Shown piece after piece: positions 19,562 to 47,116 of a DNA stretch of 54,473 bases; positions within the stretch are counted from its first letter, which is position 1, and every line of letters begins with the position of its first letter. The DNA is from a virus (Duplodnaviria; Heunggongvirae; Uroviricota; Caudoviricetes), in IMG/VR virus record IMGVR_UViG_2588253749_000004; one strand, written 5' to 3'. The notes below the pieces were generated by a model. It worked only from the letters and a program-made list of their open reading frames with translations. It made no database searches and was not told where the DNA came from. The translations under genes were made by a program, and so were the position numbers.

Positions 19562-21520
19562 TTACGCCGTACATTTCACCAGACCGCGGTGATCAACTGG
19601 CGCGACACCGGCGTCAATACGCACTTTCGTTGTCACGCCATCCACACTGAAGCCCTCCATCTGATCAATATATGGCGTATCCACACCGTTGAGATAAGCC
19701 ACTTCAATCGTATCGGAGCCTTTTGACGCAGCCAGGTAGAAGGTGGTCTGGCTGTTATCATCAAGACGAGGCTCTGCAATAACGGTCGCAAAATCTTTCA
19801 CCGGGTTAATAATACCGGCGTTAATGTCAGCCCCCTTGACACTTGAGGAGCGAATGACCTGGTTAGCAACAGACTCCATCGCCGTCGGTACCAGTACGAA
19901 CGCAGGACGAATATTCAGATGACGCTCCCCCTCTTTCTGAACGCGCATCAACTGGCGGGCTTTATCCAGCGATGCCACGTCCATTGCAGCGCTCTCCAGT
20001 ACGTTTGCATGTTTCGCTTTATCGAACAGACTTACATTATCTGTGGAGATTTTCGGGTTAGACGTCAGAATGGCATAAACCAGATCGGCAATAGTGGATT
20101 TCGCCGCACGGCCCAGTTTCATCGGGACATCGGTCAGCATATTCAGATCATCATTGATAATGGCCTGACGGGTGATACTGAACAGCTCGCCATAGGTCGC
20201 CAGTGCAATAGTGGCCTGTTTATCTCCGGTGGTGACGTATTTATATTCCGCCCCTTCACGCACCTGACGTAGAGCACTGAAGCCCCCCATACCCACACGA
20301 TGGGCAATTTTAAAATCAGACAACTGACCTTTCCGCGTCCACTGTTCATAGGTTTCAGGGGCATCTTCCCAGCCCTGCAGAATGGCTTTGTTCGCAACAT
20401 CCAGCAGAATATTACCGAAGTCAGACGTACTGTGTGTGAACGCCGCACCGACCATCTGCATCGGGTTATAACCGGAAACCCCAATACCCCGTTCAGTTAG
20501 TGACATACGGGCATATTCACGCAGGGTCATCCCGTTGTAGACATTATCACGTTCGGTTTTTTCAAATCCGGCACGCGCCATCAGCGCCTGGCGAATCCCG
20601 TCCCCCACAAAATTACCGTTACCGGCATAAATATGAGCCGGGGTATTTTTATTGGATGGCGTGGACTCGCGCCCCATCTCGTTCAACAGCTTTTCACGGG
20701 CCTGCTCCAGCGAACATTCAGGATCGGCAAGACACTGGGCCTGCAGCGTCTGATAACGCCCGCCAAACATGGCAAACAGATCATTAATACCGTTTACACG
20801 CGCTTTTTGCTCTGCCAGTACCTGCGCACGGATACTGTTTTCATCCACCACGGGTGCTGCTGCCTGCACTGGCGTCCGGGAGGCTGCAGGTTCATCATCC
20901 TGTACGCGTGGAGCACTGTTGCGTGGCGGAGTAATCATGTTTCGAATGGATTCCGGCATCTTTTTAAATTCCTCTGTACGTTTTGACTGAATACATGCCA
21001 TTGCCTTAACGGCTGGTGTCACCTGATCAGCAAATCCCTGTGCCAGACATTCGGCACCGGACATCCAGGTCTCATCCGCCAGCATGGCAGCAATTTCATC
21101 GGTGGTTTTCCCGGTTTTCTGTGCATAAGCGGGTAACAGAACCGCCTCAACTTTATCGAGCAGGTCGGCATAGGTGCGCATGTCCTCCGCATCACCGCCC
21201 GTAAAGCCAAATGGTTTATGAATCATCATGAAGGAGTTTTCCGGCATAATGACCGGGTTTCCCACCATCGCAATGACCGACGCCATTGACGCCGCCACAC
21301 CGTCGACATAAACGGTAATGGACGCACCATGTGTTTTCAGTGCATTAAAAATGGCGATGCCTTCAAAGACATCGCCACCCGGTGAATTAATATGGAGATT
21401 AATGTGGGTGATATCGCCCAGTGCATTCAGATCACTGATAAACTGCTTCGCTGTAACACCCCAGAAACCAATCTCGTCATAAATATAAATATCCGCGTCA
21501 CTCTGGTGACCTGCCTGCAT
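19562..21520 (-). CDS. Prohead protease (ClpP-like S14) fused to a major capsid protein
   Basis: About 652 aa from the Met at ~21520. The N-terminal domain has ClpP-like motifs (INSPGGDVFEGIAIFNALK ... MASVIAMVG); the large C-terminal domain sits in the capsid position. Resembles the Gifsy-2-type fusion. Confidence 0.8.
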   Translation of the reverse strand: MQAGHQSDADIYIYDEIGFWGVTAKQFISDLNALGDITHINLHINSPGGDVFEGIAIFNALKTHGASITVYVDGVAASMASVIAMVGNPVIMPENSFMMIHKPFGFTGGDAEDMRTYADLLDKVEAVLLPAYAQKTGKTTDEIAAMLADETWMSGAECLAQGFADQVTPAVKAMACIQSKRTEEFKKMPESIRNMITPPRNSAPRVQDDEPAASRTPVQAAAPVVDENSIRAQVLAEQKARVNGINDLFAMFGGRYQTLQAQCLADPECSLEQAREKLLNEMGRESTPSNKNTPAHIYAGNGNFVGDGIRQALMARAGFEKTERDNVYNGMTLREYARMSLTERGIGVSGYNPMQMVGAAFTHSTSDFGNILLDVANKAILQGWEDAPETYEQWTRKGQLSDFKIAHRVGMGGFSALRQVREGAEYKYVTTGDKQATIALATYGELFSITRQAIINDDLNMLTDVPMKLGRAAKSTIADLVYAILTSNPKISTDNVSLFDKAKHANVLESAAMDVASLDKARQLMRVQKEGERHLNIRPAFVLVPTAMESVANQVIRSSSVKGADINAGIINPVKDFATVIAEPRLDDNSQTTFYLAASKGSDTIEVAYLNGVDTPYIDQMEGFSVDGVTTKVRIDAGVAPVDHRGLVKCTA

Positions 21521-21848
21521 CCTGAACCAGGAATTATTCTTCGGACTGGTCGTCGGTGTGCTGCGGCTCCTGTCGTTTCGTTGCGGCACTGCTGCCTCCT
21601 TTATCACTGGCCGGATCGGTATCAAATACCAGATCCAGCTTGCGGTTTTCATCAATTTCGGCCTTGCGCCGACGTTTGACATCATCCGGATTACGACCAC
21701 CTGCACGTACCCAGTCTGATTCTGTCGCCGCTCCACCACGAATCTGAATTTTCCAGGCCTCAGCCTCCTTAACAGGGTCAATCCACGGCATCACCGGTCC
21801 GGAATACACCGCGGTATACAGTGAAGAACGATCAAGATCGCGGGGTAG

Positions 21849-24015
<2,167 letters not shown>

Positions 24016-42675: not shown

Positions 42676-44073
42676 TTGGTTATGATGAATTATACTGATG
42701 AGTCAACTTTTCTTGAAAAGTACAAACCGTTTAGGAAGTTTTGGACAATTTTATCACCTCATTATGTATCTTTAATGCATGCACTTGCCAAAATGATAAG
42801 GGGAGGGAATCCAATTCAAGAACTACCTTCCAATGATGAGGATTTTCTTGCAGAGTATGAAACCTGTCTCAAAAATTGGAAACACTCACAAAAAATCATA
42901 TCTTTTGAGATTATTATTCGGCTGAGAGATATAAAAAGATTGGAAACTGAAAAAAAAGAGCACCATCGAAACAAGGATAAAGAAAATAAAGAAAAGTGTA
43001 TTGATGAAATAAGTTTAAAAAAATTTGAAATTCTTATTCTTCGCCGTTGTATTGACTCAATAATTTGGAGCATTCTTGATGAAGAACACTCTAGTTTGCG
43101 GCGTTTACCTATTAATGCAAGCAATGACAATCTATCAGAAGATAACATAATTGATTCTATGGTCGCAGCCGATCTTATCAACCAGGACAAACACTCCGTA
43201 GCGATTGTCTCTGACATGAGCACATTTGTTCATGTGGGAGATTTAGTCACCTTTAATCTACTGGATGGCTTCCAGCTCGTGGAAGTTAAAACAGGTGAAA
43301 AGAATAATGAGCTTTATGAAGCTGCTGAATTTTCTGTTATCTCAGAATGTCCGCACTTTGAAGAAAACTTCATTAACAATATGCCTGATAATGATGTTAA
43401 GCAATTTAATCGCATAAAAAGGCAAATCATTCGTGGCATGAATGTTCTGGAGGCGATTAATACTGGCGAGGGCTTTGACAACTTTCATCAGTCTAAAGTT
43501 AAAATCAATGAGATAGATCATCCGTCTGAATTTTATACCCACCGCTTAGTTAAAATGTGGGAGATTATTCGCGGAGGAAAAAATTGGGCAATTGATACTA
43601 TTGATGAATGTTTGTTCTTAGGTATGTACCGTGATTCTGAAATGGGCTTTGTTGCCTTCAATGGATGGATGGATAGTCTCGGTATAAAAAGCCCTGTTGT
43701 GAATATAAATGATTCATTCTTTGACCCTTTGTCTCGACCATTTATGAGTTTGCATCTGCCAACTGAAATGCTCTCCGATCTCATGTCGGGACAAATAATC
43801 ATCGTCATGTGTTTTGACAATGAACTTTTTTTTCACCGTGCTAACAAAACGTACCCGGGTTTATATCTCCTTAGCGATGCAGCAAGAACAAAGCAGCCAT
43901 TAGAAAATATTCTTCGTGTTGGTTCACAAGGGATAGCTTCTTACGTAGATGGGAATACCAGCTTTTTAGGTAATGGTATTGAATCCCGTATCCTTTTCGA
44001 TCAGCAACGACCCGACAACATTATTGAGTGGAGCTATGCTAGAAGCGATCTCAAAAAGCAACATGAAGCATAA
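42676..44073 (+). CDS. Hypothetical 465-aa protein, co-oriented partner of the AbiH-like gene
   Basis: Long uninterrupted ORF with GAGG RBS, 83 bp after the AbiH-like gene; visibly AT-rich; contains a possible PD-(D/E)xK-like motif (VHVGDLVTF...LVEVKTGEK). Function unknown. Confidence 0.6.
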   Translation: MVMMNYTDESTFLEKYKPFRKFWTILSPHYVSLMHALAKMIRGGNPIQELPSNDEDFLAEYETCLKNWKHSQKIISFEIIIRLRDIKRLETEKKEHHRNKDKENKEKCIDEISLKKFEILILRRCIDSIIWSILDEEHSSLRRLPINASNDNLSEDNIIDSMVAADLINQDKHSVAIVSDMSTFVHVGDLVTFNLLDGFQLVEVKTGEKNNELYEAAEFSVISECPHFEENFINNMPDNDVKQFNRIKRQIIRGMNVLEAINTGEGFDNFHQSKVKINEIDHPSEFYTHRLVKMWEIIRGGKNWAIDTIDECLFLGMYRDSEMGFVAFNGWMDSLGIKSPVVNINDSFFDPLSRPFMSLHLPTEMLSDLMSGQIIIVMCFDNELFFHRANKTYPGLYLLSDAARTKQPLENILRVGSQGIASYVDGNTSFLGNGIESRILFDQQRPDNIIEWSYARSDLKKQHEA

Positions 44074-44335: not shown

Positions 44336-44758
44336 TCACTTCAATAAATACCGAACATCCCCCTGATAAAACGACAATATGCGCTGCATAACTTCGCTTT
44401 TACGACACTCAGTACAAATCATATTATGACGCCTGTCGTAACGACGTATTTCTCCATCAGGTAATGACCAGATAAGGTCCGGATCAACCGCAGATGGTTT
44501 CTTCAGCTTTGCCCTTGAGAGCTTTTTACGGGCATTTTGCCAGTCCTTACGCGCCTGTTCAGACGGGAATAACCCGTAACCAGAGTTGTATACATCGCCA
44601 CTGGCAACCAGCTCTCTGGCCAGAACGTTCATCATATATTTTGTTGCCCCAGTTTTAGTTTCCAGTTGTCTTAACGTCTCGCGCCCACTCTGGCGTACGA
44701 GTTCAACAACCTGCCCTTTAATTTTTTCCCGCTCTTCTTGTGTAAAAACTTTTGCCAC
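44336..44758 (-). CDS. Hypothetical protein (140 aa)
   Basis: ORF downstream of the O-like gene; CxxC near the C-terminus. No confident assignment. Confidence 0.45.
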   Translation of the reverse strand: MAKVFTQEEREKIKGQVVELVRQSGRETLRQLETKTGATKYMMNVLARELVASGDVYNSGYGLFPSEQARKDWQNARKKLSRAKLKKPSAVDPDLIWSLPDGEIRRYDRRHNMICTECRKSEVMQRILSFYQGDVRYLLK

Positions 44759-44798: not shown

Positions 44799-45875
44799 TT
44801 ACCCCCTGAAGCCCGGCGGAATTTCGTTATCCGGTTCAGAAATATGATTCACACAACGCTGGTTGTTCGTGCCGCTTACCGGGAGCAACCAGGGGTTCTC
44901 AAAATTCCGGTCCGGTCCAAAAAACGTCGTCGCTCGCTGAACAAATTCCGTTCCCGTTTTCCCGGTAGCCGCCAAGTATCTTGCGTAACGCCTCACGCCA
45001 TCCAGCATGGCCTCTGGTGGCACCCCCTCGCGTAATCTGGCCTTCCAGGCACTGAAAGCGGATTTCTTCGGGTTTGCTCCGGCACGCAACGGGTACTCCC
45101 GCCAGACCTGTTCGAACACATCCGGATAATCCACTCGTCCCACAGACTGCCCGGTGTTTTCCGGGACTACCCGATCGGCTTCCCGCTGAATGGCGGAATC
45201 GGCTTCGGGCTGCTGCAGTTGGTGTGATTGCTCCGGCCTTGCGGTCATCACCTGCTGCACAGCGCCCGAATCGGCTTTCAGCGCATACGCTGAATCGGCT
45301 TCCGGTGTCGTGCCTGCTGGCTGACCAAGATTGACGGTCTGAACATCCCCTGCCTGGTTCGTGGCGTTTTTTACGCCATGGACCATAGTGTTTTGATCTT
45401 CTTGATCTGTATCTTTATCTGTATCTTTATCTGTCGTGACTCGTCGTGACATGTGCGTGACATTTCGTGACGCGCCGTGACAATCGCCATTTTGTTCCCG
45501 CTTTCTTTCCCTCTCTCGCTGCGCCCTCTTGCGCTCTGCAGGAGATTTTGCGGTTTGCGAAATATTGCCGTTGTCCTCTTTAAGCACCTGGCGTTTTTCC
45601 CATCCAGTGATTAAATCACCATCAAGTACCCGCCCCTGCATCGTCTGCAAAATTGAATCAATTACCTCTTCTGTCACGTCGAGCGCACTTGCCAAATCTT
45701 CTGTCGTGACATCAATGTGACCTCGCGTGACATTTCGTGACGCGCTCACCAAGAGGTGGATATACACTGCCATCACTGTTGCAATTGGCTGCCCTGACAC
45801 CCTGGCAATTGTTCGCCACTTAGGGTCATTTGGCATGTCATGCCATAATCTGAGCCAGGCGTTAGCCATACTCAC
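44799..45875 (-). CDS. Putative replication initiator (lambda O-like role) carrying intragenic iterons
   Basis: 358 aa, downstream of the ydaS/ydaT-like genes. The gene contains two arrays of CGTGAC repeats with ~10-bp phasing. Confidence 0.55.
   Translation of the reverse strand: MSMANAWLRLWHDMPNDPKWRTIARVSGQPIATVMAVYIHLLVSASRNVTRGHIDVTTEDLASALDVTEEVIDSILQTMQGRVLDGDLITGWEKRQVLKEDNGNISQTAKSPAERKRAQRERERKREQNGDCHGASRNVTHMSRRVTTDKDTDKDTDQEDQNTMVHGVKNATNQAGDVQTVNLGQPAGTTPEADSAYALKADSGAVQQVMTARPEQSHQLQQPEADSAIQREADRVVPENTGQSVGRVDYPDVFEQVWREYPLRAGANPKKSAFSAWKARLREGVPPEAMLDGVRRYARYLAATGKTGTEFVQRATTFFGPDRNFENPWLLPVSGTNNQRCVNHISEPDNEIPPGFRG
45437..45483. repeat. Iteron array 1: five CGTGAC repeats at 10-11-bp spacing (candidate ori)
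   Basis: CGTGAC at 45437, 45447, 45458, 45468, 45478; a neighbouring 9-bp tandem (tatctttatctg) lies just upstream. Confidence 0.6.
45705..45741. repeat. Iteron array 2: four (C)GTGAC repeats at ~10-bp spacing
   Basis: Copies at 45705, 45716, 45726, 45736; shares the 13-mer gacatttcgtgac with array 1. Confidence 0.55.
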
Positions 45876-45940: not shown

Positions 45941-46366
45941 TCAATGCACAGCCACAATATTTCCTGCAGGGCCACCACGATTCATCTGGTTGAAACCAGC
46001 GATCGCCACTGCGACAAAATCATCAGCGTCTCTCACCAGTCGTTCCCGCGTCTCCACTAGTTCCCGAAAATAGGCTGAGCTATGACTGCGCATTCGGGCC
46101 ACCAGCAGAGGTGGCATTGCTTTTTCGATAGCTGGTAACAACGCCTGAATTTTTTTAACCGCATCAGGGGTGTCTTTCTCCACCCAGCGGAAAATTTTCT
46201 GAGTATTGCGAGCCAGGGCTTCCGGATGGCTGTCGTCATACAGTTCCGGGAACGTCATTCCCAGCTCGAAATACGCTTTGGTAATTTTCGCAGCCGGTAC
46301 TTTTTCGCCGTCCGGATGCGCCCAGGCATTCATCGCCATGCGGATGTGTTCATGCTTGATTTTCAT
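45941..46366 (-). CDS. ydaT: YdaT-like protein (Rac-type toxic regulatory protein)
   Basis: 141 aa; recalled as Rac YdaT; operonic with the Cro-like gene. Confidence 0.75.
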   Translation of the reverse strand: MKIKHEHIRMAMNAWAHPDGEKVPAAKITKAYFELGMTFPELYDDSHPEALARNTQKIFRWVEKDTPDAVKKIQALLPAIEKAMPPLLVARMRSHSSAYFRELVETRERLVRDADDFVAVAIAGFNQMNRGGPAGNIVAVH

Positions 46367-46617
46367 GAATCAACTCCCATCAGCTTTTTCGTAGTAGTTT
46401 TATTCCTGCCAATAGTTAAAATTGCATCGGCAGAAAATAATCCGTTTGATGCAAGAGCGATTTTTTCAGCGTAATTTGTTTCGCCGGTATATTCTGTGCG
46501 AGGCAATTTTCCGTTATCCATCCATTTATAGATTGCTCTTTGGCTGACACCACAAACGTCGGCCACAACAGCAACGCGAACAGTTTTGATTACATCTTCA
46601 AGTGTTTTCTGGTTCAT
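46363..46617 (-). CDS. ydaS: Cro/YdaS-like HTH regulator
   Basis: About 84 aa from MNQKTLEDVIK...; HTH (VCGVSQRAIYKWMDNGKLP); divergent from the repressor gene. Confidence 0.7.
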   Translation of the reverse strand: MNQKTLEDVIKTVRVAVVADVCGVSQRAIYKWMDNGKLPRTEYTGETNYAEKIALASNGLFSADAILTIGRNKTTTKKLMGVDS

Positions 46618-46696
46618 ATCACCCTCACAATGTGAACTTTGAGTACATGCTATAACAGAACTGACAGTACATTCAAGAGCGAATATCATTGAACTT

Positions 46697-47116
46697 ATGG
46701 TTCATGAAGATAAAGCGCGTAAAGAGTTCGCCAGTAGGCTTGCGCTAGCCTGTGAAAACGCTGGTTATGAACAACATGGAAGGCAGGCAGAAATTGCCCG
46801 TCGAATGAAATTAACACCAAAAGCGGTTAGCAAATGGTTTAATGGCGAAACAATTCCTCGCCGGGAGAAATTAAGGGAATTAGCAACACTAATAGGAACA
46901 ACACCAACCTATCTTTTGGGAGAGGATACAGAAGAAAGTGGACAGGTACGTTTCTATCAGGAGTTAAACCCAAGACAAAAAATCATCATTGACCTTCTGG
47001 ACGAGCTCCCTGACAGTGAGACAGATGAACTTTTAAAAACTCTTGAAGAGAAAAAACAGAAGTACAATGCAATTTACGAAGAGTTAGCACGAAAGAAAAA
47101 ACAAAAAGCCTCTTAA
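46697..47116 (+). CDS. XRE-family HTH repressor (RacR/CI-like prophage repressor)
   Basis: 139 aa; HTH_XRE (QAEIARRMKLTPKAVSKWFNGETIP); divergently transcribed from the ydaS-like gene with a 79-bp intergenic region. Confidence 0.75.
   Translation: MVHEDKARKEFASRLALACENAGYEQHGRQAEIARRMKLTPKAVSKWFNGETIPRREKLRELATLIGTTPTYLLGEDTEESGQVRFYQELNPRQKIIIDLLDELPDSETDELLKTLEEKKQKYNAIYEELARKKKQKAS

Follow-up and report, generated by a model that had tools for sequence, protein, structure and literature searches.

The window analysed here, a 54,473-nucleotide (nt) stretch of viral DNA (Caudoviricetes; IMG/VR record IMGVR_UViG_2588253749_000004), carries two helically phased arrays of a 6-bp repeat inside a gene predicted to encode a replication initiator protein. 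Together with an inverted copy of the repeat and an adjoining AT-rich tract, these arrays probably constitute a prophage replication origin embedded in its own initiator gene. The features of such an origin appear to be in place, namely a regular intragenic array, an adjacent AT-rich tract, selection acting on the DNA itself, and a host gene recognized as an initiator from its annotation and context. An earlier examination of the letters and open reading frames (ORFs) of the window (hereafter the sequence-only reading) had proposed an origin inside the initiator gene, and every sequence-level prediction of that proposal examined in the present study held.

On the plus strand, CGTGAC starts at positions 45435, 45445, 45456, 45466 and 45476 (steps of 10, 11, 10 and 10 nt), while a second group comprises CGTGAC at 45705, 45726 and 45736 and TGTGAC at 45716 (steps of 11, 10 and 10 nt). 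These positions bear out the five and four copies of (C)GTGAC at 10-11-bp intervals described in the sequence-only reading, which correctly placed both arrays inside the initiator ORF, but set the first coordinate at 45437, two nucleotides within the first copy, and overlooked the inverted copy at 45673-45678. In total, nine direct cores and one inverted core are found within the gene. Read on the gene strand the motif takes the form (T)GTCACG, and the two groups correspond to a gene-proximal array A and a gene-distal array B (Table 1), separated by a gap of 223 nt, with 270 nt from first copy to first copy. The arrays have in common a 39-nt stretch of 72% identity encoding similar peptides. 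GTGAC was found to be the most strongly clustered 5-mer in the entire window, with five copies observed in a span for which 100 first-order Markov windows gave at most three GTGAC per 50 nt, and at most four of any 5-mer. No other cluster of the motif was identified in the 54 kb, and the promoter region is free of any copy. A chance origin of the repeats is excluded, and the analysis of motif and periodicity that had been proposed as a check shows them to be non-random and helically phased.

An AT-rich unwinding element next to the arrays, for which a search had likewise been proposed, is present as a candidate at 45385-45434, immediately past array B when read along the gene. GC content in this region falls to 35% in a 60-nt window, compared with 55-63% in the flanks, and the tract holds the most GC-poor 40-nt stretch (25%) anywhere in the initiator gene. 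Its sequence includes three 12-nt tandem units at 45400-45435 (TCTTGATCTGTA / TCTTTATCTGTA / TCTTTATCTGTC), as well as two GATC sites 9 nt apart, at 45395 and 45404. By eye, without statistics, the segment GATCTGTATCTTT at 45404-45416 resembles the 13-mer of oriC, matching 9 of the 11 specified positions of the consensus GATCTnTTnTTTT.

The repeats are also reflected in the encoded protein. As a step of 10-11 nt places successive copies in different codon phases (2, 0, 1, 0 in array A and 1, 2, 0, 2, 0 in array B), the cores are translated in order as SR, VT, GH, VT, CH, SR, VT, (M)SR and VT. The ...NVT..VTT... protein repeat pointed out in the sequence-only reading is real and occurs twice, and because the motif is read in all three phases, this SRNVT...VTT peptide is explained as a consequence of the DNA repeat rather than its cause. 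When the protein was held fixed and synonymous codons were drawn from the window's own usage (3000 trials), 1.95 +/- 1.28 copies of GTCAC were expected against 9 observed, and 0.83 copies of GTCACG, never more than 4 in any trial, where 8 were observed. Furthermore, synonymous sites at conserved degenerate residues were compared over the first 480 nt of 23 homologous loci (median pairwise identity 65%). Within the cores, third-codon positions displayed a major-base fraction of 0.95 and an entropy of 0.21 bit (n=14), compared with 0.57 and 1.31 bit outside the cores (n=78; Mann-Whitney p=7e-8 for entropy), and the GTG valine codon in the inverted copy is invariant. The arrays are under DNA-level selection, and coding does not account for the repeats. 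A gene of a non-replication family whose repeats stem from coding constraints alone, one of the outcomes that the sequence-only reading had set against its own proposal, is not what was found, given the use of all codon phases, the recoding null and the frozen synonymous sites.

Database searches with the N-terminal 150 residues identified 814 relatives (E<=1e-3), among which the N-terminal domain is 58-70% identical in Pseudomonas, Bordetella, Achromobacter, Chromobacterium, Enterobacter and Klebsiella, whereas the C-terminal domains differ. We fetched 56 genomic loci of relatives and scored array architecture in 53, of which 41 possess paired phased arrays at the same gene positions. The loci range from 33 to 69% GC and derive from gamma-, beta- and alphaproteobacteria, together with a few Acidobacteria metagenome-assembled genomes (MAGs). 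GTCAC occupies identical gene positions (nt 129/139/149/160 and ~389/399/409) in 25 loci of 35-69% GC, with 3-6 copies per array among GTCAC-type loci, and the inverted copy at nt 193 is found in about 20 of the 23 typical ones. For array A, the copies stand at identical positions in about 22 homologous loci. More distant homologues carry GTAACG in some cases and (C)GAACGC in at least 14, in the same two places and with the same 10-11-nt step, while the peptide encoded over the array changes with the core class (from SRNVTRGH.DVT to SNATERGRTQN). Within the repeat, conservation is limited to the 6-bp core, the spacers of 4-5 nt being variable. Arrays of close relatives differ by 21-nt insertions or deletions, equal to two repeats or seven codons, and the window initiator itself has such a 7-residue insertion in array B relative to most homologues. 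An AT trough accompanies the arrays in a similarly regular manner: in 37 of the 41 loci, the 40-nt stretch poorest in GC anywhere in the ORF begins immediately beyond the distal array. These stretches average 28% GC, compared with 56% for the loci, and the trough is kept even in genomes of 60-69% GC. The trough is always encoded as a low-complexity peptide of the DKDKDK, DTDTDT or REEEI type.

Few other features travel with the arrays. DUF977, YdaT/cII-like and Cro genes, as well as the window protein's C-terminal domain, each co-occur in only 1-5 of the 56 loci, leaving the N-terminal domain as the sole protein element that always accompanies them. Consistent with this, the Shiga toxin (Stx) phages POCJ13 and 75/02 match the C-terminal half of the window gene at 82% nucleotide identity, but have it joined to an unrelated N-terminal half in which no phased repeats were found, indicating that the arrays belong to the N-domain of the window type.

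Several loci depart from the common architecture. In Erwinia phyllosphaerae (L026), GTCAC recurs at 5-nt steps (nt 160, 165, 170 and 412, 417, 422), and in Pantoea and Enterobacter (L023 and L027), GTAAC recurs at mixed steps of ~10, 18 and 21 nt together with a longer loop peptide; with these irregular arrays defined over gene nt 140-225 and 410-455, the three loci may represent intermediates between iteron classes. Two further relatives, from a Serratia MAG (L044) and a Pantoea sp. (L056), carry the N-domain on a different and longer C-terminal part (396 and 434 aa) with a '(Y)VGISxNPWAR..DLK' motif, and phased arrays were found in neither. Arrays are likewise absent from three loci of 33-35% GC hosts (L029, L031 and L042). 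Such array-less loci may have their origin elsewhere, or motifs outside those searched. Copies at 99-100% identity labelled Staphylococcus saprophyticus (P0036, a partial protein) and Collinsella (L057, a MAG scaffold of 1.8 kb that also encodes an identical YdaT-like protein) look like contamination or mis-binning rather than real host range.

The identity of the gene that hosts the arrays was examined through protein family, structure and gene context. The ORF list gives a GTG start 6 nt upstream of the ATG (ORF 44799-45875), yielding the 358 aa of the sequence-only reading; the gene itself is upheld, with the ATG at 45869, preceded by GAGG and giving the 356 aa of the Prokaryotic Genome Annotation Pipeline (PGAP), as the likelier start. 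PGAP names the product 'phage replisome organizer' or 'hypothetical protein', mostly the latter, and a Pfam search of the protein returned no family at E<=0.01 or past threshold. Over its full length, however named, the protein falls in PHROG 3729, 'replication initiation protein' (E=5e-258); its C-terminal half matches PHROG 1701 ('DnaD-like helicase loader') and PHROG 9327 ('primosomal protein'), with weak matches to PHROGs 4880 and 5968 ('replisome organizer'). In an AlphaFold2 (AF2) model, the N-terminal domain has a fold like that of the DnaD N-terminal domain (NTD), followed by a basic helix, and array B and the AT-rich tract lie at the start of the region encoding a predicted disordered linker. 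The protein ends in 24 residues (44802-44873, ...VNHISEPDNEIPPGFRG) that closely match those at the C-terminus of Escherichia coli DnaT, including the DnaT chains 2ru8, 6aep and 9zbt of the PDB, with a pattern of VSEPDxxIPPGFRG; the same tail ends many relatives with different middle domains. Downstream of the gene in other genomes we identified a lambda-P-type loader (L004, PF06992), a DnaC/IstB-type ATPase (L019, L027), and a DnaB helicase (L015, L049), which together with the initiator form classic lambdoid phage modules as judged from gene content. Taken together, the PHROG family, the position corresponding to that of lambda O, the fold and these downstream partners point to a replication initiator, in agreement with the identity that the sequence-only reading had assigned to the ORF.

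These features suggest how the candidate origin could operate. The winged-helix N-domain would bind one 6-bp core per helical turn, such that each array may hold four to five protomers arranged head-to-tail along a single face of the DNA. Together with the inverted copy, both arrays, which lie about 260 bp apart, could then organize a higher-order complex, in which oligomerization of the protein may bridge the arrays; conservation of the inverted copy argues for recognition of double-stranded DNA and against a motif in the mRNA. Stress imposed by this complex, combined with transcription that proceeds from pR across the gene, as it does in lambda, would melt the neighbouring AT-rich tract. The C-terminal domain with its DnaT-like tail would finally bring in the DnaB-DnaC helicase and loader of the host, a step proposed because genes for P, DnaC and DnaB are lacking in the phage itself. 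Judged from its gene content, this combination of a DnaT-like tail with the absence of P, DnaC and DnaB genes suggests a one-protein replication module tapping the helicase-loading route of the host. In the structural model, the residues encoded by the arrays are predicted to lie in a loop and in the disordered linker, where the protein may tolerate a sequence dictated by the DNA.

A further idea concerns array A, which would be self-referential if the loop that it encodes (aa 44-57) itself read the core, placing word and reader in the same nucleotides. This loop reads RNVTRGH..VT in the GTCACG class and NATERGRT.. in the GAACGC class, and is the main class-differing part of an otherwise near-identical winged-helix domain. 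We consider this reading distinctly unlikely. If true, any change of iteron would automatically change the reading head, giving the system an inherent path to novel origin specificities that are compatible with one another.

The proposal of an origin comes with several caveats. The structural similarity of the N-domain fold to the DnaD NTD is modest; 12 of the 53 scored loci lack clear arrays; and, with the arrays lying inside the gene, the correspondence between core class and peptide is partly true by construction. In addition, the helix-turn-helix and wing are nearly identical from one core class to another, nor does the basic helix vary in step with the core. Alternatively, the arrays could be initiator sites serving mainly for control, through autorepression by roadblock, titration, handcuffing or an enhancer like crr of P4, with unwinding and helicase loading taking place elsewhere. 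Plasmid iterons commonly serve both initiation and control, two separated arrays with an inverted copy exceed the needs of a minimal origin, and the arrays stand in the transcribed path of an early operon. Against this, the AT trough that abuts the distal array in 37 of 41 loci, including those of high GC content, is predicted by an unwinding element and not by a pure control site, and the window offers neither another motif cluster nor a copy in the promoter region, making a role confined to control unlikely.

Other explanations dispense with the initiator as the ligand, or with a ligand altogether. The repeats might be bound by another factor, as in a packaging (pac) site, a centromere of the ParR/parC type, a transcription factor target, or an mRNA motif recognized by an RNA-binding protein. 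Two helically phased arrays of 10-11-bp direct repeats do resemble parC of plasmid R1, as well as pac sites lying inside terS genes. However, only the N-domain travels with the arrays, its neighbours being common to so few loci; no ParM/ParR-like or TerS gene is adjacent; the conserved inverted copy speaks against an RNA motif; and PHROG family, fold and downstream partners all mark the product of the host gene as a replication protein. A ParR/parC-type centromere was specifically rejected on finding the arrays to be intragenic instead of bordering the promoter of a neighbouring parM/parR-type operon, with cII-like/YdaT, Cro-like and DUF977 neighbours and no partition ATPase or adaptor. We regard recognition by another factor as very unlikely. 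Lastly, the repeats might be a by-product of coding, arising from internal duplication of the SRNVT..VTT segment or from codon bias and lacking any function at the DNA level. The 39-nt stretch common to both arrays, with its similar peptides, is consistent with an ancient duplication. Nevertheless, the cores use all three codon phases and encode different amino-acid pairs, synonymous recoding fails to reach the observed count, synonymous sites of the core are frozen across deep divergence, and the other core classes keep phasing and positions while core and peptide both change. This explanation is effectively refuted and merits next to no credence.

A replication origin within an initiator gene has precedents against which the candidate can be compared. 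In lambda, oriλ lies midway within the initiator gene O and comprises iterons and an AT-rich tract (PMC7466680; PMC6022878), and the O genes of lambda and Stx phages differ in iteron number (four vs six) and by 13 extra residues (PMC7466680). The candidate resembles oriλ in its central placement within a pR-operon initiator gene, in its repeated initiator sites followed by an AT-rich tract, in an iteron number that varies between relatives with protein length changing in step, and in the division of the initiator between an N-terminal part for origin binding (predicted here) and a C-terminal part directed toward helicase loading. Unlike lambda, the protein has no detectable sequence homology to O, with no match to Pfam Phage_rep_O at E<=0.01 or among the matches listed at E<=1. 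Where lambda has a single array of four to six imperfect inverted repeats of 19 bp, the window has two arrays of 6-bp direct cores every 10-11 bp, about 260 bp apart, and one of these arrays is located in the very stretch that codes for the predicted DNA-binding domain; and where lambda needs its own P protein, the window phage is without a loader gene. The likeness to lambda drawn in the sequence-only reading hence extends to iterons within an initiator gene, but not to a sequence homologue of O or to the type of repeat.

The closest architectural match is Rep of plasmid pSK41, a RepA_N protein whose NTD, a DnaD-like winged helix, binds Rep boxes in the middle of the gene that encodes it (PMC5703833). 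A dispensable linker encoded by the origin joins this NTD to a host-specific C-terminal domain (CTD) directed toward the host machinery, and in pPR9 the NTD and origin have been swapped together (PMC5703833). The window protein exhibits the same three-part layout of NTD, linker encoded by the putative origin, and CTD; no RepA_N (PF06970) match was returned for it in the Pfam search. In phage SPP1, oriL within gene 38 comprises direct repeats together with an AT-rich DNA unwinding element bound by gp38 (PMC6316719). SPP1 is similar in having intragenic repeats with an unwinding element, and in that gp38 binds two separate regions, oriL and oriR; it differs in that these regions lie about 13 kb apart, each forming a complete origin, and in that a loader (gp39) and a helicase (gp40) are among the products of SPP1 itself.

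Two protein families were also considered for the initiator. The N-terminal phage replisome organiser family PF09681 (Phage_rep_org_N) represents Rep proteins of the lactococcal Tuc2009/TP901-1 type, in which the origin again lies within the gene. The window protein gives a colinear, end-to-end match to this profile (aa 5-122 against profile positions 1-118 of 121), but membership was rejected, with a score of 12.8 bits (E=0.12) against a gathering cutoff of 23.3 and matches in only 2 of 21 relatives, such that the protein would be at most a distant relative of PF09681. Similarity to E. coli DnaT (primosomal protein I) is nearly identical in pattern over the last ~24 residues. Membership of the DnaT family was rejected since the match is confined to the tail and lies below cutoff (NCBIfam NF002770, 19.2 bits against 201). 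The complete DNA-binding domain of DnaT (PF17948) was detected in 5 of 21 relatives and not in the window protein. DnaT itself is recruited to forks by PriA/PriB, and not to a sequence-specific origin (PMC13377028).

With respect to genomic setting, E. coli chromosomes contain matches to the window at 100% identity. The element adjoins rspB in strain DETEC-E601 and carries dicB, ydfD, hokD and ydfU, which identifies it as a Qin-like lambdoid prophage. The local order of cI-like repressor, Cro-like, YdaT/cII-like, initiator and DUF977/Ren-like genes (Table 1) places the initiator gene at the position of O in the lambdoid early-right operon, as read from gene order. Genes 98-99% identical to it occur in the isolated phages Tritos, Evi and vB_EcoS-689R5. 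Tritos has the same module as the window, and no helicase or loader gene was found within 6 kb of its initiator gene. Nor was a P-, DnaC- or DnaB-like replication protein found encoded in the window, the sole DnaC-like match being IstB of an insertion of the IS21 family, which was rejected as a replication loader. Near-full-length matches to the 2.9-kb stretch around the initiator gene are present in 327 of 5,426 complete E. coli genomes.

A number of additional observations were made on neighbouring genes. Both the ORF list and the record of phage Tritos (327 nt) give the Cro-like ORF a length of 108 aa, compared with a 255-nt coding sequence from PGAP, leaving its start codon uncertain; the longer form overlaps the upstream region of the divergent repressor by only about 8 nt. 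The IS21-family element adjoins a gene encoding a 739-aa fusion of ClpP protease and major capsid protein, and the morphogenesis region of the prophage may accordingly be interrupted. Just past the DUF977 gene, a 465-aa ORF without a Pfam family opposes the early operon; its homologue in DETEC-E601 adjoins an abortive-infection gene of the AbiH family, and the ORF may be a defence moron.

Table 1. Coordinates of the candidate origin, its initiator gene and neighbouring features in the window (aa, amino acids; gene nt, position counted along the initiator gene).
Feature	Position	Strand	Remarks
Replication initiator gene	44799..45869	-	ATG at 45869, 356 aa; PGAP coding sequence 1071 nt
N-terminal domain, aa 1-126	45492..45869	-	Winged-helix-like fold, then basic helix aa 110-126
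Predicted disordered linker, aa 127-250	45120..45491	-	Predicted local distance difference test (pLDDT) score below 50; homologues not alignable here
C-terminal helical domain, aa 251-356	44802..45119	-	Exchangeable between relatives
Array A (gene-proximal)	45705..45741	-	4 direct GTCAC(G/A), gene nt 129, 139, 149, 160; encodes ASRNVTRGHIDVT, the loop between N-domain helices H1 and H2 in the AF2 model
Inverted core	45673..45678	+	GTCACG as plus-strand text; GTGAC on gene strand at gene nt 193, codons D-V-T
Array B (gene-distal)	45435..45481	-	5 direct GTCACG, gene nt 389, 399, 409, 420, 430; encodes CHGASRNVTHMSRRVTT, within the predicted disordered linker
Candidate DNA unwinding element	45385..45434	.	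Directly after array B in gene direction; encodes DKDTDKDTDQEDQN
cI-like repressor	46697-47116	+	
Cro-like gene	46363-46689	-	
YdaT/cII-like gene	45941-46366	-	
DUF977/Ren-like gene	44336-44758	-	Follows initiator gene
465-aa ORF	42676-44073	+	
IS21-family element	22077-23878	-	istA (rve integrase) 22856-23878; istB 22077-22859, PF01695, E=8e-112
ClpP-protease/major-capsid fusion gene	19562-21781		739 aa

Our search of the literature, which omitted most subscription journals, found no publication on the GTCACG repeat or on this initiator family. The principle of an origin inside an initiator gene is classical; here it is probably encountered in a widespread initiator family. The module is common in prophages of E. 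coli and Shigella, and prophages of many other genera, among them Pseudomonas, Bordetella, Enterobacter and Klebsiella, carry its N-domain. For these elements, the present analysis provides a concrete and testable candidate origin of about 360 bp (45385-45741) together with its putative initiator. Paired phased arrays with an AT trough offer a simple signature for annotating prophage origins, and the three natural specificity classes (GTCACG, GTAACG and GAACGC) on one scaffold would be a convenient setting in which to study the evolution of origin specificity. More generally, the arrays provide a clear example of an overlapping DNA signal holding a protein sequence invariant across phyla.

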